A stretch of DNA of 32,000 nt from NCBI RefSeq assembly GCF_021738965.1, contig NZ_JAKKOQ010000007.1, positions 125,620 to 157,619 on the forward strand, written 5' to 3'. This document shows, one piece after another, positions 1,154 to 12,913 of this stretch. The DNA comes from Gordonia zhenghanii. Lineage in GTDB: Bacteria; Actinomycetota; Actinomycetes; Mycobacteriales; Mycobacteriaceae. Position 1 is the first letter of the stretch. Each line of letters opens with the position of its first letter. The position numbers and the translations under genes were made by a program. The notes under the pieces are model-generated. The model made no database searches, had not been told where the DNA came from, and saw only the letters and a program-made list of their open reading frames with translations.

Positions 1154-2194
1154 CTGAAGGATGAGGACCTCGCTCAGACGCTCGGGATGCTTAAGTGTTG
1201 GTCGGACGGCTGGGTAGAGCCTGTCGTCGCGACACCAGAGCCGAGGCACATTGCGGCGCAACAGTTGCTCGCTGCCGTGCTACAGACACGCCGTCTGCCG
1301 CTCGCTGGCTGGCAGAACCAGTGGGGCACGCTGAACCTCTTCGGGGACGACGGACCCCGGATCGTGGAACACCTCCTCTCGGAGGGTTTTCTCGATCAGG
1401 ACGGGGGAGCGCCTTCATCGGACTTGAGGCCGAGAAGCACTTCGGCCGGCGGCACTTCATGGAATTGCTGGCGGTCTTTACGGCAGCCCCGGAGTTCACC
1501 GTGCTCGCAGGACGGAACGAGGTCGGTAAGATCGACGTCGGGCTACTCACCGACGACGTCGAAGGCCCGCGGGTCCTGCTGCTCGGCGGACGGTCGTGGA
1601 TGGTGACGCACATCGATTGGAAGCGGCGGCACGCATTCGTAGAGTCGACGGACATTGCGGGTATCGCACGGTGGCAGTCGATCCCCGACGGCGTCTCGTT
1701 CGAGATCGCCAGGGGGGCGCGTGATGTGTTGCTTGGCGCCGTTCCCGAAGGTGTGACGTTGACGAAGCGTGCAGCAGAAGCGATTGCGGCGTATCGCGCG
1801 CAACGTAGCCCCGATGTGGTTGCTGACGCGCTGGTCGTGCGACGTGATGACAAGGGAGATTGGCACTGGTGGACCTGGGCGGGAGCGAAGGCCAACCGGA
1901 CCCTTGGCTGCGTGGCTGCCCGAGCTGGTGCCGCCGCGACAACGGATCGGTGCGGAATCGATCCGGCTTCACCGTGACCTGACGCGTGACGAGATTCGGT
2001 CGGCGATCAAGGCGGTGTTGGAGAGTGACAGGCGACCCGCGCCGACCGTGGACTCTCGCGCGGTGAAGGGACTCAAATTCTCCGCAGCGCTACCGGTGGA
2101 ATTGGCGCAGCGGACGTTGGCGGTGCGTGGGATGGATAGGGTGCATGCCGAGGAAGTGTTGGGGGAGAAGCGGTCGTATCGGCTGGATGGGTGA
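1154..2194 (+). pseudogene. 5'-truncated, twice-frameshifted C-terminal remnant of an Lhr-like DEAD/DEAH helicase
   Basis: Three consecutive ORF pieces in alternating frames read as one protein. Piece 1 is ...GWVEPVVATPEPRHIAAQQLLA...LSEGFLDQDGG. Piece 2 is AFIGLEAEKHFGRRHFMELLAVFTAAPEFTVLAGRNEVGKID...WWTWAGAKANRTL. Piece 3 is AAWLPELV...FSAALPVELAQRTL. This matches my memory of the Lhr 'DEAD/H-associated' C-terminal region. The frame switches fall at a G5 run (1403-1407) and at about 1897-1903. No helicase core lies upstream. Confidence 0.7.
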
Positions 2195-2223: not shown

Positions 2224-3123
2224 TTACTCCGGTTGCGGCCCGCGAGTAGCAGATGAGAACCAAGCGCAGTCATCATGGTGCGCTTTGAGATTGGCTTGTG
2301 CTGGCCAGTCCTGACGGGCGGAAGGCAGACTAAGAGCGTGGCTATCGTACTGGTCGTACTCGGTACCCCGCATCGGTTCGCTTACCCGGACCAAAATTTG
2401 GGAACTATCTGTTGAGAACTCGAGCGTGATGAGGTGCAGATCGAAAAGTGTATGGAGATCCGACCGCATCAGGATTCCGTTGTTTGTCTGGTGAGAGTGC
2501 TCGCCTCGGTACGGCTGAATGTGAGCTGCCTCGAGGATTTCGGTCACCGATGAGCCGGTGATTGCGCATTTGTTTCTGTAGGCGACGAGTAGCTTTTGCC
2601 GGAACTGTGGTTGACCCTGCCTTCGGTGGATTAAGGCGGTGACCTTCTTTCGAGTGTCGGGGTAGCCATCTCCATCCCCTCCGGGCGGCAGCGTACTGCC
2701 ATTGAAGAGGTCCCGTAAGAACTGCTCGCTGCCGCTAGGGACCGACACCTGGCCGTTGCTCGGGAGTTCTCTGACTCCGGTAGCGGCCGCCATCTTGCCC
2801 CAGCGGATATCGGTACGGAGATCGTCGCTGACGAGTTCGAACGAGAACCGGCGCTTGTATGGCCGATCGTTCCACGGCGCTTCCGGCATCGTTTCCTCGA
2901 TCGGCACCGCGTCCTGGGTGACGCGAGTCCATCCGACAAAGCTTTGGCCGCTCTGCCAAAAGAATACGTCGTCACCCGCTCGGATATCCTTTGCGTTCGT
3001 GATGTCCCAGAACTCGCGTTCAACCGCGTAATCCCAATGGTCCGGGTAGTCACGGCTGATCGTTACGATCCATGCAGTCACTTGCAGGCATGCCTTTTCC
3101 AGGTTCGCTCCGGGTGGAGGCAT
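2224..3123 (-). CDS. EVE/PUA-like (putative modified-base reader) domain fused to an HNH_2-type endonuclease; type IV restriction-like
   Basis: The C-terminus GQPQFRQKLLVAYRNKCAITG..LEAAHIQPYRGEHSHQTNNGILMRSDLHTLFD is a textbook HNH_2 module. The N-terminal ~130 aa (WIVTISRDYPDHWDYAVEREFWDI..IRAGDDVFFWQSGQSFVGWTRV) fits the EVE/PUA-like pattern. The true start may be GTG at 3081 (VTAWIV...). Confidence 0.8.
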   Translation of the reverse strand: MPPPGANLEKACLQVTAWIVTISRDYPDHWDYAVEREFWDITNAKDIRAGDDVFFWQSGQSFVGWTRVTQDAVPIEETMPEAPWNDRPYKRRFSFELVSDDLRTDIRWGKMAAATGVRELPSNGQVSVPSGSEQFLRDLFNGSTLPPGGDGDGYPDTRKKVTALIHRRQGQPQFRQKLLVAYRNKCAITGSSVTEILEAAHIQPYRGEHSHQTNNGILMRSDLHTLFDLHLITLEFSTDSSQILVRVSEPMRGTEYDQYDSHALSLPSARQDWPAQANLKAHHDDCAWFSSATRGPQPE

Positions 3124-3188
3124 GTCCTGGGCGGAAGCCTGTCGGGCCGTGCTCGTTTGTCGGTGTTCTATTTAGTTGTGGTCGGGTG

Positions 3189-5081
3189 TTAGGTAGTACC
3201 GTCCACCAGCCGATGCAACGCATCCCGCGTCTCTTCGTCCGTTGAGTACAAGACGGTCCCGACCATGCCGCGCGTGAGCAGCACTTTGTAGACATGGCGG
3301 ACGAGTCGAGTGAAACGAAGATCGGAGACCTTCGTCGAACTGCGGAAATCGGGGTCACGGTTTGCGCCGCGATCGATGACGAACCAGCCGTCCCTCCATA
3401 GGAGGTCGGGGCCGAGTATCACGCCGTTCCAGTCGTACTCGAAGCCTTGAGCCGTGTAGATGCAGCCGACTTGGCCGAAGCCACCGTCCTGTGTTGCCCA
3501 CAGCGCGGATGGGGGAGCCTCGCCGATGCGTCGGTCTCCCTTGGCGTTCCACGGGCGGGCCCAGTCGCCGATCTCGACGTCGGCGACGAGTTCGCCGTCT
3601 CGAGGGTCTGACCATGGCCAGCAGAAGCCGGCGGTCATGCGTGCGGAACAGCCGTCGTCCATCTTCTCCAGGAGGCGCCGTTCGAGGTCCCATGGAGTGT
3701 CGGCCACTTCCACGGCGAACTCGGGGATGGGCTTCCACGCGGTCGGCTCCTTCTCGGACAGCCCGAGGAGCCTCTGTACCCAGTCGAGATACTCGGCGCT
3801 GCCACCGCAGCGAAACTGAGCGTCGAGTGGAATATGTACGGTCTCGAGACCAAGGGACTTCGCGTACGACGTGATCTGTTCGAGCGAACCCATCTCGCCG
3901 GGGCGAACCACCTGGTGCTCGTCTAGAAGGAACACCGGTACGCGGGCAGCCGAGATCAGCTCGTCGACCTGTGGTCGGTCCGTACGCAGTGCCGCCTTGG
4001 TGTATCGATCAACCGAGGTCTCGCGGACGCGATGTGCCTCATCCATGATGAGGACGTCCAGATCGTTTGCGTCGGCCGTCATGAACTGGTTGAAGTACTT
4101 GAACATCTTCTGCACGCGGGGTGCGCGGTGTCCTGCGACTTTGCGGAGCGTCTGCGTGAAAGACCGGGAACCGGTCGCGTGGAGGACTGTCCTGCCTTGA
4201 CGGGCGAGTTCTCCGAGCAGTTCCAGCGCGATAACACTCTTCCCGCTGCCGGGGCCTCCGCTGACGATGATGACGCGCTTGGAGTTCGACTTCTTCGCTT
4301 GGTCGACCTGATGCATCACCAGATCGACAGCGAGCTGCTGATTGCCGAGCAGGTGGAACTGCGAGCGGTTCTTCACCTCTTCGGCAGCGACCTTGAGTAG
4401 TTGGCGAGACGGCGCCGCAGCTGAGTTGAGGAGTAGGTCCGCCGACGCCTTTCCCCGCTTCTCGGCGAGCCGCGATCGCAGGAACTCGTGGAACTTGCCC
4501 CGATCCGCGGCTGTGAAGACACGGCCCATCGTCGTGGCGGGCACCGCCTTCAGGTCCTCGACGAGGCTCGGGTCGTTGGCGTTGTGGAGGTAGGCGGCCC
4601 CAGCCAGCGCATCCGGCTGATCTTGCAGAACGCGCGCGAAGTCCGCGATGTATTCGCAGTAGCCACGGACCTGCAGGATCGGATTGAGCTTCGGGCCGCC
4701 GGGCATGCCGGGAACGTCGACCAGTTCAGCACTGTCCTCGAACGAATACGCGGCGGTCCACTGCTTCAACTCAATGACGACGTACGACGGCTCACCGGTC
4801 TTCGGGTGAATGCCTGCCAGGACGACGTCGGCGCGTTTCGAGGTGAGCGGCATGTGGTACTCGATCAACATCTCGACATCGCCGAGTCCGGCCTCGCGTA
4901 GGTCGGCGGCTAGCGCGGGGAGACTGCGACGCCAGGAGTTCTGTTCCGACTCTCCGGCACGGTGCCCCGTCGTGAACAACATTTGGCTCAGTAACTGCTC
5001 CACCAACGAATCGGGCTGACTCATCCGCGGGTCGGCGGCAGTCGTACGAAGCAGCGTCACTCTCAGTCCCCAAGGCAGCAC
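3189..5081 (-). CDS. DUF2075 (Schlafen-like) nuclease-helicase with an N-terminal PD-(D/E)xK-like core plus a P-loop ATPase
   Basis: Motifs seen: KRADVVLAG...SYVVIELKQW (D...ExK), Walker A GGPGSGKS, Walker B LIMDEAHR. DUF2075 hallmarks present: DAQFRCGGSAEYLDWV, IYTAQGFEYDW, YKVLLTRG. An alternative start is ATG at 5024 (MSQPDSLVEQLL). Confidence 0.85.
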   Translation of the reverse strand: MLPWGLRVTLLRTTAADPRMSQPDSLVEQLLSQMLFTTGHRAGESEQNSWRRSLPALAADLREAGLGDVEMLIEYHMPLTSKRADVVLAGIHPKTGEPSYVVIELKQWTAAYSFEDSAELVDVPGMPGGPKLNPILQVRGYCEYIADFARVLQDQPDALAGAAYLHNANDPSLVEDLKAVPATTMGRVFTAADRGKFHEFLRSRLAEKRGKASADLLLNSAAAPSRQLLKVAAEEVKNRSQFHLLGNQQLAVDLVMHQVDQAKKSNSKRVIIVSGGPGSGKSVIALELLGELARQGRTVLHATGSRSFTQTLRKVAGHRAPRVQKMFKYFNQFMTADANDLDVLIMDEAHRVRETSVDRYTKAALRTDRPQVDELISAARVPVFLLDEHQVVRPGEMGSLEQITSYAKSLGLETVHIPLDAQFRCGGSAEYLDWVQRLLGLSEKEPTAWKPIPEFAVEVADTPWDLERRLLEKMDDGCSARMTAGFCWPWSDPRDGELVADVEIGDWARPWNAKGDRRIGEAPPSALWATQDGGFGQVGCIYTAQGFEYDWNGVILGPDLLWRDGWFVIDRGANRDPDFRSSTKVSDLRFTRLVRHVYKVLLTRGMVGTVLYSTDEETRDALHRLVDGTT

Positions 5082-5173: not shown

Positions 5174-6049
5174 GTGTTGTGGTGTGGCACACGGAGTCTG
5201 GAAGTGGCCTATCGGGGCGGTCGCCGGAGCTACTCTTGCTTCGTGGCCCTGACTGACCTGACAGTGGATGCGGTCAACTCGGCCATGGACGAGTTCGATG
5301 ACGCTGGCGGAGATGCGTTCCTGTCGAGGCACGGGTACCAGCCGGCCAAGCAGTACTTCGTTGTGCGTGACGAACGGCAGTACGATTCGAAAGCGATCGT
5401 CGGCGTCGCGCATGGATACCTTCCCGGTCGGCAAGCGTTGAAGGCGTCAGAGTTCAGTGGCGGCGAGAAGACGGTCGTCAGAGTGCTTGAGTCGCTCGGG
5501 TTCGAGGTTCGCAGACACGAGGTCGATCGACCGCGCGACGAGTCCGGTTCGCCGGTGAAACACATGCGAGATCATGACGCCCCGGCTCACCCGATTACGG
5601 AACCACGCGTCGAGCGGATCCCGGTGGAATCGCAGATCACCGGGACGTTCGTTTACGACGTCGACCGGACGGTTGAGGCTGCGCGAGCCGAGGCGGAACT
5701 TCAGTCGAGCCTCCACCGCTACCTGACTTCGATCGGACACGTCGTCTGTCGACATCTCATCCACACACCCGACGGCTACCGCCTCCTGACAGACATCTAC
5801 GACGAGACGGCCGACGTTCTTGTCGAGGTGAAGAGTGATGTCAGCAGGCAAACGTTGCGGTCAGCGCTCGGACAGATCCTCGACTATCAGCGGTACGTGT
5901 CGCCAGCGGCCAGTGCGCTGCTCGTGCCAGAATCGCCGTCTCGGGAAATGCTTGATCTTTTCCGCAGCAACTCGATCGACGTCATCTGGCCTCAGGAAGG
6001 CGCGTTCTCTACGGCGTCGATCGCTGGAGGCTTGTTCACGAAGATGTAG
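5174..6049 (+). CDS. Two-domain nuclease: N-terminal ScoMcrA-type 'head'-like domain plus a C-terminal PD-(D/E)xK nuclease
   Basis: The N-terminus DAFLSRHGYQPAKQYFVVRDERQYDSKAIVGVAHGYLPG..FSGGEKTVVRVLESLGFEV resembles the module at the N-terminus of actinobacterial type IV (ScoMcrA-like) enzymes; this is from memory. The C-terminus LLTDIYDETADVLVEVKSDVSRQTLRSALGQILDY is a D...ExK...Q..DY nuclease core. The likely true start is GTG at 5243 (VALTDLTVDAV). Confidence 0.65.
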   Translation: MLWCGTRSLEVAYRGGRRSYSCFVALTDLTVDAVNSAMDEFDDAGGDAFLSRHGYQPAKQYFVVRDERQYDSKAIVGVAHGYLPGRQALKASEFSGGEKTVVRVLESLGFEVRRHEVDRPRDESGSPVKHMRDHDAPAHPITEPRVERIPVESQITGTFVYDVDRTVEAARAEAELQSSLHRYLTSIGHVVCRHLIHTPDGYRLLTDIYDETADVLVEVKSDVSRQTLRSALGQILDYQRYVSPAASALLVPESPSREMLDLFRSNSIDVIWPQEGAFSTASIAGGLFTKM

Positions 6050-6317: not shown

Positions 6318-6572
6318 ATGGTGGGCAAGCACGGCAGGATCGTTCAGGCGATGCGGAACAACCCTGCCGGGATACGGTTCGATGACTTGAAGAAGGTCTG
6401 TGACGGACTCTTCGGCGCGCCGCGGAATAGAGGAACGAGTCACTTCGTCTACAGAATGCCGTGGGCAGGCGATCCGCGTGTGCTCATCCAACGAGGAAAG
6501 GACGGCAAAGCGAAGGCGTACCAAGTGCGCCAGGTGCTTGCCGCGATCGACAGACTTGAAGGCGGTGAATAG
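6318..6572 (+). CDS. hicA: HicA-family type II toxin (mRNA interferase-like)
   Basis: 84-aa protein immediately upstream (3-nt gap) of a clear HicB antitoxin. The ...GTSHFVYRMPW...VLIQRGKDGKAKAYQVRQVLAAI pattern resembles the HicA/YcfA GSH-x-fold signature. Confidence 0.6.
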   Translation: MVGKHGRIVQAMRNNPAGIRFDDLKKVCDGLFGAPRNRGTSHFVYRMPWAGDPRVLIQRGKDGKAKAYQVRQVLAAIDRLEGGE

Positions 6573-6575
6573 CAA

Positions 6576-6893
6576 GTGTGGAAGGCAGAACAATATAGCT
6601 ATCGCGTGGTCTGGTCCGAAGAAGACCAGGAGCACGTCGGGCTCGTCGACGAGTTCCCGAGTTTGTCCTGGTTGGCGGCGAACCAGGTCGAAGCGCTGAC
6701 AGGAGTCGGCGAGGTCGTTGCCGAAGCGCTCGACGACCTGGGGGACGACGCTCCCATTCCGCTGTCGCAACGCAAGTACTCGGGAAAGTTCCTTGTCCGA
6801 ACGACGCCTCGTGTGCACCGGCGACTTGCCGAACAAGCCGCACGCACAGGTAAGTCGTTGAACGCCGTCGCGAACGAACTCCTCGACGTGTGA
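6576..6893 (+). CDS. hicB: HicB-family antitoxin with a C-terminal RHH-like DNA-binding tail
   Basis: YSYRVVWSEEDQEHVGLVDEFPSLSWLAANQVEAL...PIPLSQRKYSGKFLVRTTPRVHRRLAEQAARTGKSLNAVANELL closely matches the HicB antitoxin consensus as I remember it (YsY.v.WSeED...ySGkf.lR.p..lH..La..A...g.SLN). Confidence 0.8.
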   Translation: MWKAEQYSYRVVWSEEDQEHVGLVDEFPSLSWLAANQVEALTGVGEVVAEALDDLGDDAPIPLSQRKYSGKFLVRTTPRVHRRLAEQAARTGKSLNAVANELLDV

Positions 6894-6950: not shown

Positions 6951-8531
6951 GTGACGAACTCATCCCCGGAGCATCCGCGTCCTGTCCTCGTCGTCGACTT
7001 CGGAGCCCAGTACGCCCAGCTCATCGCTCGGCGCGTACGAGAGGCTCGTATCTACTCAGAGGTCGTCGCGCACGATGCGACCCTCGAGGAGATCACCGCG
7101 AAGAATCCGGCGGCACTGATCCTGTCGGGTGGCCCGGCGTCGGTGTACGCCGACGGTGCGCCGACCATCGACGAGAAGCTGTTCGACCTGGGAATTCCGA
7201 TGTTCGGCATCTGCTACGGCTTCCAGAAGATGACCACCGCGCTCGGTGGTGTCGTCGCCAACACCGGTGGACGCGAGTTCGGCCGCACGACGCTGACTGT
7301 GTCGGGCGACGGCCGACTCCACCGCGGACTCCCGGATACGCAGCCGGTGTGGATGAGCCACAACGACGCCGTGCAGAGCGCACCCGAAGGATTCGACGTG
7401 ACCGCGTCGACGCCGGGCGCACCGGTTGCAGCCTTCGAGTGCATCGAGCGTCGGATGGCCGGCGTCCAGTACCACCCCGAGGTGATGCACAGCCCGCACG
7501 GCCAGGAAGTGCTCACCCGCTTCCTGTACGACGTCGCGGGCCTGAAGCCGACGTGGACCGCGGCCAACATTGCGGAGGCGTTGATCAACGATGTGCGCGA
7601 GCAGGTCGGCGACGGCCTCGCCATCTGTGGACTGTCCGGTGGCGTCGACTCCGCTGTCGCAGGTGCGCTCGTGCAGCAGGCGATCGGGGATCGCCTCACG
7701 TGTGTGTTCGTCGACCATGGTCTGCTGCGCGCCGGTGAGCGCGAGCAGGTGCAGAACGACTTCGTCGCGGCTACGGGCGCCCGCCTGGTGACCGTCGATG
7801 CTGAGGAGACCTTCCTTGGACACCTCGACGGTGTGTCCGACCCGGAGGAGAAGCGCAAGATCATCGGTCGTGAGTTCATCCGGTCGTTCGAGGGCGCGGT
7901 GTCCGAAGTCCTCGGCGGCCAGGCCGCAGAGGGCAAGAAGGTCGACTACCTCGTCCAGGGAACGCTGTACCCGGACGTCGTCGAATCTGGGGGCGGCAGC
8001 GGCACCGCGAACATCAAGAGCCACCACAACGTCGGAGGACTGCCCGAAGACCTCGAGTTCAAACTCGTCGAGCCGCTCCGTCTCCTGTTCAAGGACGAGG
8101 TGCGCGCCGTGGGACGTGAGCTGGGACTGCCCGAGGAGATGGTCGCCCGCCAGCCGTTCCCGGGGCCGGGCCTGGCCATCCGCATCGTCGGTGAAGTCAC
8201 CAAGGATCGCCTCGACCTTCTGCGCACCGCCGATCTGATCGCGCGTGAGGAACTCACGGCGGCCGGTCTCGACGGCCAGATCTGGCAGTGCCCGGTGGTG
8301 CTGCTCGCGGACGTCCGCAGTGTCGGCGTGCAAGGCGACGGCCGAACGTACGGCCACCCGATCGTGTTGCGGCCGGTGTCGAGCGAGGACGCGATGACCG
8401 CCGACTGGACTCGTATTCCCTACGAGGTGCTCGAGACGATCTCGACTCGCATCACCAACGAGGTTCCTGACGTGAACCGCGTCGTGCTCGACGTGACGAG
8501 CAAGCCGCCGGGGACGATCGAGTGGGAGTGA
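6951..8531 (+). CDS. guaA: GMP synthase (glutamine-hydrolysing)
   Basis: Full-length 526-aa protein with a GTG start. It has the GATase-1 domain (ICYGFQ, YHPEV), the ATP-PPase P-loop [10 protein letters not shown], and the C-terminal dimerisation domain ending PPGTIEWE. Confidence 0.97.
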
Positions 8532-9141: not shown

Positions 9142-10263
9142 TCACAGACGTTTCAGGTCTTCGTGAGGAGTCGGCGTTGCCGAGGGATGCCAGTCGGCAA
9201 TTGCTTCGAGCAGTGCGGAGCGGACAGAACTCGGGGGAGCAGACAGGTCGACTTGTCTAACACGTAGCGGGAATCCAGCGAGTTCGACATCGAGGTCACG
9301 GCCGCGTGATCCGTCGACGAGTGCCCCCAACAGGAGCGCGCGGACAGTTTCCGACGAACCCGCGGCGTAAACGGACGCGTATGCGTGGATCTGTCGAACA
9401 TAGTCAGGTTTCAAGATTACCTTTCCGTACGTCGTGGTGAAGATCGGCCCAAACTTGCACTCGACGATTGTCTGGTAGCTGTCGGTTCGGATCACGACGT
9501 CCGTGTTCAGACGCGGCAGAAACGCGATGTCCTCGGGACTTCCCGTTGCCGGCCATGCTTTGCTCTCGGCTGCGACGGTGCAGCCCTGGCCGCCGACGTG
9601 GATACGGTAGAAGCTGCGGACGGCGGCTTCGAAGAGTCTCCGGAGAGCAGCCTCGTTCCGAACGACGGCAGGCAAGGAGACGTTCCCGGGCGCATGCTCC
9701 GGCGCACACATCTCCCGCACGAGCCGGCTCAGTCGGATCAACGTTCGATCGACCGAATCGAAGTGCCCGTACTGTTCCCGTGACAAGTCTGTCAGTAAGG
9801 GATCTGCTGGCGTGACGCCCGCACGTTCCAGCATCTGGGCGGTAGTCAGGCAGCGACGGCGAACAGTGGTGGAGACAGCCTGGTGCGCGGCGCGGCGCAG
9901 AGTGACGAGCATGAACCGGTACCGAGGAAGGTCGAGGGTCTGCTCACTGAATCGACACATCACGCGGCCCGACTCCATCAGCCGGTGACGCGCTGTTCCG
10001 AGGTGGTCGATCCGGCCTCGCACTCGCGTGAGCGTGTCCACCCGAGTGCGGTAGTCGACCGCGAGCATCGAGCGAACGCGCGAATCGACCTGACCGGCGA
10101 GAGTGTCTGCGAGAGCGTCGAGCAGATCATTGTCCCGCTCGCCGCTCTGCAATGACTCCTTGTCGTCGCCGGTGAGTACGTCAAGAAGGTCCGATGCGTA
10201 GAGCAGTAGGAACCAGACGCTGCGGACGTCTATGTGAGTGGATCCTTCACCCGCGGTGAACAT
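9142..10263 (-). CDS. mcrC: McrC-like nuclease subunit of a McrBC system
   Basis: The start lies 1 nt after the mcrB stop. The sequence shows LRRLFEAAVRSFY (McrC LFE.FV..f-type motif) and a C-terminal PD-(D/E)xK core LNTDVVIRTDSYQTIVECKF. Confidence 0.8.
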   Translation of the reverse strand: MFTAGEGSTHIDVRSVWFLLLYASDLLDVLTGDDKESLQSGERDNDLLDALADTLAGQVDSRVRSMLAVDYRTRVDTLTRVRGRIDHLGTARHRLMESGRVMCRFSEQTLDLPRYRFMLVTLRRAAHQAVSTTVRRRCLTTAQMLERAGVTPADPLLTDLSREQYGHFDSVDRTLIRLSRLVREMCAPEHAPGNVSLPAVVRNEAALRRLFEAAVRSFYRIHVGGQGCTVAAESKAWPATGSPEDIAFLPRLNTDVVIRTDSYQTIVECKFGPIFTTTYGKVILKPDYVRQIHAYASVYAAGSSETVRALLLGALVDGSRGRDLDVELAGFPLRVRQVDLSAPPSSVRSALLEAIADWHPSATPTPHEDLKRL

Positions 10264-10264
10264 C

Positions 10265-12052
10265 TCAGAGTTCCGTCAGCAGATCGTCAACGACGCTGCT
10301 GACGGACTCCGGATCCTCATGCCAGTACTCGCGCAGCTGCGGCTCGACCGACGACCGCACGACGGCGGTGAACCAAGAAGCGAGCTCGGTCGCCTCTAAT
10401 CCGGGAGTGAAGTATGCGTGGCCGATCCGGAACGAGGGGCCTAAGCGTGGATCCGCCGCAATCCGATCGTTCATCGCCATGATGAGAGTCCCAAGGTCGT
10501 CGACGCGTTGGGGGTCGACGCCACGGAATCGCGCGCGTAGACAGGCTCTCCACGCCTCGTTGAACTGCGGTTCGAGCTCGAAGAACGCGAACCGTCGTCG
10601 CAGTGCGAAGTCGACGAGGGCAAGTGAGCGGTCGGCAGTGTTCATGGTGCCGATCACATAGAGGTTCTCTGGAAGGAAGAACGCAAGCTCGTTCTCGCGC
10701 ATATACGTCAGCTCGAGCGCGTCAGCTTCAGTTCGCTTGCTGCGCTCCAACAGCGTGAGCATCTCGCCGAGCGCCTGCGCGGGATTCCCGCGGTTGAACT
10801 CCTCGATGACGATCACATGGGGGATGTCAGGATAGTTTCGTGCTCGCTCGGCGTGTTGGAGCAATGGCCCGTCCACGAGTGTGAGTACTCCATCGCCACC
10901 GGGCCGCCACCCGCGAACGAAGTCCTCGTACGCAGTCCCGGGGTGGAACTGGACCGCGCGGACGGCGTCATCGACCCGGCTGCCGATGAGTGCATATGCC
11001 AGGCGGCGCGCGAGCCATGTCTTTCCAGTGCCCGGAGCGCCCTGCAGGACGATGTTTCGCGTCTCATCCCAGCGCTTGATGATCGCGTGCAGTTCCGCGA
11101 CATCGTGGAAGGCTCCGTCATTGATGATCGATTCGACGGTATACCCACGATCGACGATCAACTCGGATTCCCTATCCTCGGACGGGAGATCGCTGTCGGT
11201 GTCGTCCGGCGTTTCATCCGGTTGCCAGTATGACTTGAGCGGCTTCGTGTAAAACGACGGGGTGTCGCCGGGTTCAAGTGAAAGCCACGAACGGAGCGCC
11301 GCCAGGTCGAGATCGTCGTCACCTGACCGTGGGCGTCCTGTGACTTCCGGGAAGAAGGCGTTGACTATGGCTTCCTTGTGCTGGCTTGCGACGATCGACA
11401 TAAAGTAGTTGGGATGGCCGAGGTAGGTAAGGCATTCGCGCATCGATGGCTCGGAACCTCCCGGCGCAGCCTTAACCATCGAGCGCCACTGGAGAGGTTC
11501 TCGAAACGCAGCGTCAATCTCCTCCGTGGTGAAACTCCGGACGTACCGGGCGAATTCAATGGCGACTGACAGTTGCTGGAATCGACGAATTGCGAATGCG
11601 ACTCCACCGTAGAAGACCGGGTTGTCGAACGCGGCTAGTATCTCGTCAGGAATCTCGTAGTCGATGCCGTGCAGAACGGCGTCGATGTTTGCGATCTTCG
11701 TAGCCTTGCGGAACTGCATAGTCGGCAGCATCTGCAGTAGGTAGATCTCCGCAAACAGCACTCGTGCGTCGTCGCTCACCTCAGCCAATTGCTTATCTAG
11801 CTTGTCAGAGAACGAGCCACCAGTGACATCTGGTTGATTTACGAAACTCTTGATCAGCGTGGCGATGTTTTCGTCCGTCCACGCGTCGCGATCGGTCAGT
11901 ACCGATCCGCCGTGCCGCAGGGGGTTCAGCATCATCGCCGCAGCCACGCGCAGAGGCTCTTCACTCGGACGGAAGTCGCATTGCAACGGCTCACGCTCGA
12001 TCGCCCCGCTCGTAGGCCACAGAACAGAGCCGGGGGTCTGAAAATCAGTCAT
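10265..12052 (-). CDS. mcrB: McrB-like AAA+ GTPase with a ~330-aa uncharacterised N-terminal domain
   Basis: Walker A LQGAPGTGKTW, VQFHPGTAYEDFVRGWRP, Walker B VIVIEEFNRGN, and the McrB signature GTMNTADRS. The start is placed at ATG 12052, preceded by GAGGAC 5 nt upstream. The upstream 267 codons of the 862-aa track ORF are Arg/Pro-rich noise. Confidence 0.85.
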   Translation of the reverse strand: MTDFQTPGSVLWPTSGAIEREPLQCDFRPSEEPLRVAAAMMLNPLRHGGSVLTDRDAWTDENIATLIKSFVNQPDVTGGSFSDKLDKQLAEVSDDARVLFAEIYLLQMLPTMQFRKATKIANIDAVLHGIDYEIPDEILAAFDNPVFYGGVAFAIRRFQQLSVAIEFARYVRSFTTEEIDAAFREPLQWRSMVKAAPGGSEPSMRECLTYLGHPNYFMSIVASQHKEAIVNAFFPEVTGRPRSGDDDLDLAALRSWLSLEPGDTPSFYTKPLKSYWQPDETPDDTDSDLPSEDRESELIVDRGYTVESIINDGAFHDVAELHAIIKRWDETRNIVLQGAPGTGKTWLARRLAYALIGSRVDDAVRAVQFHPGTAYEDFVRGWRPGGDGVLTLVDGPLLQHAERARNYPDIPHVIVIEEFNRGNPAQALGEMLTLLERSKRTEADALELTYMRENELAFFLPENLYVIGTMNTADRSLALVDFALRRRFAFFELEPQFNEAWRACLRARFRGVDPQRVDDLGTLIMAMNDRIAADPRLGPSFRIGHAYFTPGLEATELASWFTAVVRSSVEPQLREYWHEDPESVSSVVDDLLTEL

Positions 12053-12300
12053 TCGCGTCCTCAACTGGGAATGGGTGCCGGTGGTAGTCGGAAGGGTATC
12101 GGAGGCGAGGTGACGGGGCTCGACCTTGTTCGCCATGCGGGACGCACCGGGGCGATCGACTTGTCCGGCTCGCGGATTAAGCGGTCTGCCGGGGCACTTC
12201 GAACGAGAGCGACGACGATGCAGGATTTCGATGCACGCCGCTTTGCTCCGACGTTCACTCAGTCGCGATGGGTCTCCACTTCGACCACCAGAAGGCCGAA

Positions 12301-12801
12301 TCACCACACGTTCAGCACGGTCCGCTCGACGAGGTGCGGGCGGGCGGTGGTGAGCGTGAACTCGACCGGACCTGATCCAGTGCGGGGAGACGCCGACACC
12401 AGGTCTTGGGCGACCGGCGGAATGAGGGTGCCGGAGACGCGACCCGCCACCACACCCGACGACCCGCTGCGCAGATTGCGCCAGCGGACGATCGTGTGCA
12501 CTCGACACGGCATGCCCGCGCGGTCGGAGATGCCGAAGAAGTTGCCGCCCACGCTGACTCGCACGATTCCACGGTTGTTCTTGGGTGGCAGGTTTGGACC
12601 GGGGTAGAGGACACGTGCGGATGTGAACTGGGCGAACACTTGACCTGCACACGCTGGACCATATGCGACAGTCGGTGAGCGCAGTTCGGCGTAGCGAGGG
12701 GCGTCGGCATGCGCAGGCGCCGCGAGCATGGTGGCCGCTGCGCCAGCGACTACTGCCGCGGCGATCCCGGTTCGCATCCTTAGGTTTGAGCCTCTTGTCA
12801 T
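12301..12801 (-). CDS. Secreted hypothetical protein with a signal peptide
   Basis: The N-terminus MRTGIAAAVVAGAAATMLAAPAHA|DAP is a classic signal peptide, followed by a beta-rich body with 3 Cys. It overlaps the spurious extension of the mcrB ORF in another frame. The start is 12801 or 12777. Confidence 0.6.
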   Translation of the reverse strand: MTRGSNLRMRTGIAAAVVAGAAATMLAAPAHADAPRYAELRSPTVAYGPACAGQVFAQFTSARVLYPGPNLPPKNNRGIVRVSVGGNFFGISDRAGMPCRVHTIVRWRNLRSGSSGVVAGRVSGTLIPPVAQDLVSASPRTGSGPVEFTLTTARPHLVERTVLNVW

Positions 12802-12913
12802 CTTTGCTCCCTGGTCTCAGGTTGTCGATGACTGTCGGTGACGGACGCACCATCAGCCTGATTCCAGCGTAAGCGCGGTGTCGTCGGACGTAGACCGAAT
12901 TGCGGAGATCGAG

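Follow-up and report, generated by a model that had tools for sequence, protein, structure and literature searches.

We analysed a stretch of 32,000 nucleotides (nt) from Gordonia zhenghanii (contig NZ_JAKKOQ010000007.1, positions 125,620 to 157,619; this whole stretch is hereafter called the window, and coordinates refer to it unless another locus is named). Two neighbouring genes on its minus strand encode a DUF2075 helicase with a nuclease-like N-terminal domain and a protein that joins a putative EVE reader domain to an HNH_2 nuclease domain. The initial annotation had described them as two open reading frames (ORFs) on one strand, running from 5081 to 3189 and from 3123 to 2224 with a gap of 66 nt. 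Both ORFs are present and all motifs quoted from them were found in their translations, but the gap widens to about 107 nt with later start codons. The alignment of orthologues and the NCBI models place the likely true start of the DUF2075 gene at GTG 5060, which gives a protein of 623 amino acids (aa); the NCBI models P0121 and P0122 (623 and 611 aa) are 100% identical to the window ORF. For the EVE-HNH gene the orthologues agree on GTG 3081, and protein P0001 (annotated as ‘HNH endonuclease’, 285 aa) shows 100% identity to the window ORF. Scanning the minus strand of the 107-nt spacer yielded no terminator-like or sigma-70-like site. Residues are numbered according to the 630-aa ORF for the DUF2075 protein and according to the 285-aa protein for EVE-HNH. 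The features of the locus are as follows:

3189..5081, minus strand: DUF2075 gene; the longest ORF has 630 aa with a GTG start at 5081 and matches PF09848
4572..4949, minus strand: nuclease-like N-terminal domain of the DUF2075 protein, about residues 45–170, with D85 and E104-x-K106-Q-W
3237..4280, minus strand: DUF2075 helicase core, residues 268–615, with Walker A, Walker B, FRCGGS, YTAQGFEYDW and KVLLTRG
3082..3188, minus strand: intergenic spacer of 107 nt between the DUF2075 and EVE-HNH genes
2224..3081, minus strand: EVE-HNH gene, 285 aa when read from GTG 3081; ATG 3123 opens the longest ORF, of 299 aa
2692..3081, minus strand: predicted EVE/PUA-like reader domain, residues 1–130 of the EVE-HNH protein
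2257..2658, minus strand: HNH_2 beta-beta-alpha-Me nuclease domain, residues 142–275 of the EVE-HNH protein

The larger protein is predicted from its sequence to be a DUF2075 (Schlafen group 3) helicase of superfamily 1 (SF1) with an N-terminal PD-(D/E)xK motif of NERD-like type. The Pfam family SLFN-g3_helicase/DUF2075 (PF09848) matches residues 268–615 with E = 1.6e-82, Walker A corresponds to G275–S282 (nt 4259–4236) and Walker B to D347 E348; this SF1 core with conserved Walker A and B motifs is the one that characterizes Nhi and Nhi-like proteins. At least 97% of 92 orthologues keep D85, E104-x-K106, both Walker motifs, FRCGGS, YTAQGFEYDW and KVLLTRG, and the N-terminal nuclease motif is also invariant in A2. 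PADLOC returned partial matches to PDC-S41, Nhi and AbiO: the Nhi model aligns with residues 260–405 only (E = 5.7e-10), and PDC-S41 matches better (2.1e-15), likewise over a short stretch. No Pfam family matches the N-terminal 230 residues of the window protein. A Bordetella relative, which is 27% identical and carries the same motif, matches Pfam NERD with its N-terminus (2e-5, above the cut-off). NERD is a family of PD-(D/E)xK nucleases. The AlphaFold2 (AF2) model of the DUF2075 protein was computed from a shallow alignment of sequences at least 68% identical and was left out of the fold search; it reached a mean predicted local distance difference test score (pLDDT) of 57 and stayed below 50 in the N-terminus, where it shows an alpha-beta-beta-beta-alpha-beta secondary structure at low confidence. 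As the model is too poor, the nuclease fold is predicted from the conservation of the motif and from the NERD match in the homologue. A sequence search of the PDB with this protein gave no match.

The smaller protein matches Pfam HNH_2 with E = 1e-13. Pfam EVE scored 20.5 bits on the whole protein, under the cut-off of 23; with the first 130 aa alone the score just reached it, at 23.0 bits. The AF2 model has a pLDDT above 90 over residues 1–130, and a Foldseek search against the PDB returned VcaM4I (6yex) first, followed by the EVE proteins PH1033, Rpa0253 and Atu2648 and by YTH domains, at a probability of 1.00. Judged by this model, the reader domain has an EVE/YTH-type fold of the PUA superfamily. 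When a profile of 26 family members was compared with the PDB, residues 168–273 of VcaM4I were the sole sequence match (E = 1.9e-11). The nuclease domain keeps C172, H187, N201, H210 and D214 as family-invariant residues, with H187, N201 and H210 invariant in 26 sequences, and the reader domain keeps W25, D26, D37, F41, W70, Y75, R78 and W94. VcaM4I flips the base into a hydrophobic pocket formed by P24, W82 and Y130 (Pastor et al. 2021, PMC7897488). The aromatic residues W25, F41, W70, Y75 and W94 are invariant despite a mean EVE-domain identity of 32% and are candidate pocket residues. The domain calls of the initial annotation hold up in both proteins: PD-(D/E)xK plus DUF2075 in the larger one and, in the smaller one, an HNH_2 nuclease behind an N-terminal domain that models as a PUA-like EVE fold and not as a different fold, which the annotation had named as a refutation.

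The EVE-HNH family is small, with 27 full-length clusters in 5.8 billion proteins, all of them actinobacterial. A genome scan using one genome per species returned 15 family loci, 14 of which carry a DUF2075 orthologue (57–80% identical) within 8 kb: at 12 loci it lies directly upstream on the same strand, at L012 it is on the opposite strand, and at L030, a frameshifted locus, it lies downstream. By comparison, any DUF2075 gene was found at 3 of the 65 other HNH_2 loci in the same scan (Fisher p = 6.5e-12). Five additional contexts found from the HNH side were all paired with DUF2075. Overall, 19 of 20 independent contexts of the EVE-HNH family have a DUF2075 orthologue as neighbour, nearly always immediately upstream on the same strand at a distance of about 100 nt. 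The genera with the pair include Gordonia, Rhodococcus, Antrihabitans, Tsukamurella, Nostocoides, Humibacillus, Knoellia, Kribbella, Blastococcus and Sanguibacter, among others. In 19 pairs the matched stretches of both genes are separated by 88–133 nt, and the pairwise distances of one protein correlate with those of the other (r = 0.73, Mantel p = 2e-4), which shows long co-inheritance of the two genes. The adjacency that the initial annotation had seen in one genome and proposed to look for in others is therefore conserved when viewed from the HNH gene; viewed from the DUF2075 gene the pairing does not hold, as most DUF2075 orthologues have no such partner. In Geodermatophilaceae (L033, 6759–8489; L012, 8001–8867) the pair is divergent, not tandem, and the Geodermatophilus HNH protein, with 576 aa, carries a further domain in its middle that separates the EVE-like domain from the HNH domain.

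Conservation falls off along the cassette: across 24 pairs the mean pairwise identity is highest in DUF2075 (0.68), lower in the HNH domain (0.49) and lowest in the EVE domain (0.32). The comparison of Rhodococcus erythropolis NBRC 15567 (L007) with a metagenome contig (L085), whose DUF2075 proteins are 98% identical, shows this gradient as a sharp break. The two DNA sequences are 95–100% identical through DUF2075 until about 50 nt before the HNH start, drop to 40–55% over the EVE domain and linker alone, and return to 82–96% from the catalytic HNH region into the downstream flank, the DNA downstream being 90–96% identical. The 5′ breakpoint lies in the spacer that is equivalent to 3082..3188 of the window. 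Within a conserved two-gene frame, the reader has thus been replaced locally or has diverged to an extreme degree. We regard this replacement by a member of the same family as the strongest argument for a functionally specific slot over a chance neighbourhood. A second HNH_2 gene of L007 (8916–10007, minus strand) follows the EVE-HNH gene directly in convergent orientation; its product has 363 aa and another N-terminus, and the stacking of several reader-HNH genes seems common in pair-bearing islands.

DUF2075 orthologues far outnumber the EVE-HNH family. For a census of partners we took 80 metagenomic DUF2075 orthologues (58–80% identical), 62 of which have enough downstream sequence, and classified the slot behind DUF2075 by ORF position and homology. 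A complete EVE-HNH gene of the family follows directly in about 9 of the 62. Other occupants are an EVE domain with a non-HNH C-terminus (2/62; L127 and L128), HNH_2 with another N-terminal domain (3/62; L094, L120 and L139), an HNH_4 protein (1/62; L092) and a PLD-helicase (1/62; L147); the remaining orthologues have unrelated genes downstream. The presence of a partner is concentrated in certain DUF2075 subclades. In G. malaquae the DUF2075 protein is 89% identical to that of the window and the HNH partner only 35%; divergent members of the EVE-HNH family therefore replace one another at the same position. The 308-aa protein directly after DUF2075 in L127 (6217–7143) and L128 (6542 to about 7468) has an N-terminus of the same EVE family and a C-terminal ‘DLVWTD...NVAEVKGLT’ motif that resembles PD-(D/E)xK, i.e. 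the reader is kept and the nuclease exchanged. In L095 (2866–4147) about 1.3 kb of unrelated DNA stands in place of the middle 460 nt of the EVE-HNH gene; a distant stretch of L100 (11607–11872) matches part of this insert at 90% identity, and the insert may be a mobile element.

The pairing has limits. No close DUF2075 relative was found on viral contigs, and the plasmids of PLSDB yielded HNH-domain matches only, with no full-length member of the EVE-HNH family. In the Bordetella locus L049, 5 nt separate a PUA-like HNH_2 gene from the PD-(D/E)xK-DUF2075 gene downstream of it. A cross-phylum rule of pairing was rejected, as five of five other members of the Bordetella HNH family have no DUF2075 and are preceded by a MazG-like gene instead. 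This HNH_2 family is large, proteobacterial and cyanobacterial; its proteins have 330 aa and an N-terminal domain of no known type. Members are found in L166–L170 (the gene spanning 4001 to about 4990 in each) and also in L171 (2620–2979) and L172 (312–671). The MazG-like gene (PF12643) lies 0–40 nt upstream of the 330-aa HNH_2 gene in five of five contexts, an arrangement that resembles another conserved module of two genes. The pair loci of Dermatophilaceae likewise have a MazG-like gene, divergently upstream of DUF2075.

All loci examined are defence islands. Neighbours of the pair include PglW/PglX, BrxD/BrxHI, ZacA/ZacC, HmaA, a DpdE-like helicase, a 1036-aa type IV enzyme, PbeA-like proteins and more HNH_2 genes. 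Of 18 well-flanked pair loci, 8 have genes of the type 2 bacteriophage exclusion (BREX) system no more than 8 kb away: L002, L004, L005 and L007 carry pglW/pglX, L104, L165 and L009 carry brxD/brxHI, and the window has a BrxHI remnant. L005 carries DUF2075, HNH, a 209-aa ORF, pglW and pglX in this order on one strand. In Rhodococcus sp. NPDC058639 (L161, 6001–13872) DUF2075 is followed directly by pglW and pglX, and the EVE-HNH gene lies about 24 kb downstream, past brxHI and an McrB-like gene. The BrxHI remnant of the window (1195–1977, plus strand; homology over 1384–1911) is truncated and probably frameshifted; it is convergent with the HNH gene, as is the intact gene of L165, and represents residues 429–604 of that gene at 80% identity. 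The fragment is the remnant of a lost BREX system, the rest of which is absent.

Beyond it lies an msrA-like ORF (86–490). Divergent from DUF2075, a 291-aa ORF (5174–6049, plus strand) matches the PADLOC model of a type IV enzyme with residues 27–114 (1.6e-11), and its C-terminus has a D...EVK motif resembling PD-(D/E)xK; its product is probably a third modification-dependent nuclease of the island. Relatives of its N-terminal stretch sit just upstream of an HNH_2 match in L021, L039, L060, L065, L068 and L075, possibly in the same protein. Further away are a HicB antitoxin gene (6576–6893, plus strand) with an adjacent ORF (6318–6572, plus strand) that has no family match and is assumed to be HicA, and a pair of McrC and McrB-like (AAA_5) genes (9142–12853, minus strand); the 862-aa McrB ORF seems to begin with a spurious, Arg-rich extension of roughly 270 codons. 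Together with HicAB this pair flanks guaA (6951–8531). In three Gordonia species the DUF2075 gene occupies one syntenic site between guaA and msrA/bioY, and the guaA-msrA interval looks like a hotspot of defence islands in Gordonia.

We give about even odds to our best reading, in which the two genes are a conserved cassette and work as an ATP-assisted, modification-dependent (type IV-like) restriction module, composed of an Nhi-like motor-nuclease and a dedicated reader-nuclease. The analysis shows the domains with their intact catalytic motifs, the linkage and gene order, the co-inheritance and the reader swap; we infer cooperation of the two proteins, their substrate, ATP dependence and the following order of events, and the sensor/nicker feeding a processive degrader that the initial annotation had suggested is likewise a conjecture. 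The EVE domain would recognize a modified base of the invading DNA, probably with an aromatic pocket that takes up the flipped base as in VcaM4I, and the HNH domain would then cut or nick the DNA nearby. The Nhi-like helicase-nuclease could use ATP either to unwind and degrade from these lesions or to bring the reader-nuclease to its targets, so that limited cuts would turn into irreparable damage to the modified invading DNA. The helicase-nuclease might thus be a stable autonomous core and EVE-HNH a dedicated accessory, the reader of which would be exchanged or evolve fast to track phage modifications. We favour this reading because of the linkage (14/15 versus 3/65), the fixed spacing, the co-inheritance, the specificity of the slot and the conserved catalytic residues of both nucleases and of the ATPase, and because precedents exist in VcaM4I, Nhi and the two-gene system TgvAB. 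Several points weigh against it. Both component types are known to act alone, on the one side Nhi and Nhi-like proteins and on the other TspA15I and VcaM4I, and the DUF2075 protein retains its own nuclease motif in paired loci, so that the need for the HNH nuclease is not obvious. Only about 16 of 62 DUF2075 orthologues (about a quarter) have a reader-nuclease or other nuclease directly downstream, and the closest relative, G. zhaorongruii with a 95% identical DUF2075, has no HNH gene. The HNH gene of L095 is disrupted next to an intact DUF2075. The single exception among the 20 contexts, Rhodococcus sp. NPDC058639 (L009/L161, JBHXRF010000003.1), has the genes about 24 kb apart on one contig with a BREX locus between them. 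Correlated distances are expected for any two adjacent co-inherited genes, and the ~100-nt spacer could house a separate promoter.

These observations bear on the main rival, a somewhat improbable yet serious alternative to cooperation, in which two independent single-gene systems travel together: the Nhi-like protein would attack phage replication intermediates and EVE-HNH would be a stand-alone, NTP-independent type IV enzyme. Adjacency would then reflect clustering in islands and shared inheritance, and complementary coverage would be the only benefit. The autonomy of the characterized relatives of each architecture fits this explanation, as do the many DUF2075 orthologues without a partner, the split genes in L009/L161, the inactivated partner in L095 and the location of all loci in dense defence islands. 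However, clustering does not predict the fixed order, strand and ~100-nt spacing that recur at 12 of 15 scan loci and in every further pair across actinobacterial families. Neither does it predict the contrast between 14 of 15 and 3 of 65, which was obtained with other HNH_2 genes of similar islands, nor the swapped-in reader from the same family at the same position.

The frequent BREX-2 neighbours suggest another possibility, which we regard as unlikely: the pair could be an accessory arm of type 2 BREX (phage growth limitation, Pgl) that depends on BREX proteins and supplies a nuclease against modified DNA that the BREX core lacks. The 8 of 18 pair loci with BREX-2 genes within 8 kb and the one-strand gene order in L005 speak for it, and type IV enzymes inside BREX are already a known theme. 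However, BREX genes are missing within 8 kb of more than half of the pair loci, the position of the pair varies (before pglW, after brxHI, or convergent), and the window retains the pair with BREX reduced to a fragment. A narrower version, which we hold to be very unlikely, would make the reader and DUF2075 the missing modification-dependent effector of type 2 BREX: the reader would recognize the N6-methyladenine (m6A) that PglX places on phage DNA, and the helicase-nuclease would then destroy it. Pgl restricts progeny phage that were modified in the first round of infection, and such an effector would explain how. Pertinent to it are the YTH-type m6A readers among the close structural matches and the 8 of 18 pair loci that abut BREX-2 genes. 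Least probable of all, in our view, is that DUF2075 is a housekeeping helicase-nuclease of DNA repair or recombination and HNH a selfish or toxin-like nuclease held in check. DUF2075 is unusually conserved for a defence gene (58–80% identity across genera, thousands of homologues) and is syntenic next to guaA in three Gordonia species; as a sign of housekeeping this synteny was discarded, since it holds within Gordonia only and stops there. Moreover, defence genes neighbour every locus examined, the architecture matches that of experimentally defensive Nhi-like proteins, and the HNH gene can disappear while DUF2075 stays, but not the other way round, which does not fit a toxin-antitoxin pair.

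If the two proteins do cooperate, no coupling of a Schlafen-type (DUF2075) helicase-nuclease to a modified-base reader would have been described before, and the pair would be an ATP-assisted type IV system built from parts known before only as autonomous enzymes. Cooperation might also explain the little activity of some EVE-HNH proteins when tested alone, including two actinobacterial ones (Lutz et al. 2019, PMC6765204), if these belong to the present clade. EVE-HNH proteins of Saccharomonospora and Mycolicibacter were inactive in that study. The reader swap in a conserved frame represents a natural experiment on how new phage DNA modifications can become targets of an existing defence system, and the variable readers are a possible source of proteins that recognize new DNA modifications. 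The recurrent BREX-2 neighbourhood suggests a layered actinobacterial defence against unmodified and modified phage DNA.

The initial annotation knew of no named system that pairs a reader-HNH protein with a DUF2075 nuclease-helicase, and our literature search found none either; Lutz et al. 2019 (PMC6765204) proposed DUF2075 as a possible partner only for a different group of modification-dependent enzymes, the McaZI group (DUF3427-DUF3883), next to which they had noted it, and suggested testing for an active complex. That adjacency resembles ours in that a DUF2075 NTPase gene stands beside the gene of a modification-dependent nuclease, but the partner family is another one, and Lutz et al. 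2019 gave neither conservation statistics nor experiments. The search likewise returned no description of a conserved DUF2075/EVE-HNH cassette, of its reader exchange or of its BREX-2 neighbourhood, which is absence of evidence only, as the coverage of the literature was incomplete.

Among known systems, TspA15I (Lutz et al. 2019, PMC6765204) and VcaM4I (Pastor et al. 2021, PMC7897488) are of one group of EVE-HNH modification-dependent endonucleases and work alone, VcaM4I being an auto-inhibited, NTP-independent stand-alone enzyme (PMC7897488), and EVE-HNH proteins are predicted to be common type IV enzymes. The window protein shares with both the N-terminal EVE fold, the C-terminal HNH_2 domain and a size of ~300 aa, with VcaM4I as best structural match. 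In contrast to them, its EVE domain is barely detectable by sequence (23 bits), and unlike the stand-alone VcaM4I its clade adjoins a DUF2075 ATPase in 19 of 20 contexts, as judged by genomic context alone. The larger protein has the layout of Nhi from Staphylococcus epidermidis, which combines nuclease and helicase activities (Bari et al. 2022), and of Nhi-like PD-(D/E)xK-DUF2075 proteins, which provide single-gene defence (Bari et al. 2022; Millman et al. 2022): a predicted N-terminal PD-(D/E)xK nuclease followed by a DUF2075 SF1 helicase. It is, however, only a partial match to the PADLOC Nhi model, and whereas Nhi and Nhi-like systems consist of a single gene, about a quarter of the orthologues of the window DUF2075 have a nuclease gene in a fixed downstream slot. 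SauUSI and McrBC likewise combine a modified-base reader, an NTPase motor and a nuclease, but SauUSI unites a phospholipase D (PLD) domain, a superfamily 2 helicase and DUF3427 in one polypeptide, where here we find two genes and two nucleases, and McrBC uses the AAA+ GTPase and McrC folds. TgvAB of Vibrio cholerae is a two-gene type IV system in which both genes are needed though one looks sufficient by its domains (PMC11014532); the two-gene arrangement is alike, but both of its proteins are GmrSD-like (DUF262/DUF1524) and it has no helicase. Set beside these systems, the cassette is a well-supported candidate system the parts of which were already known and the conserved pairing of which we found described nowhere in the literature covered.

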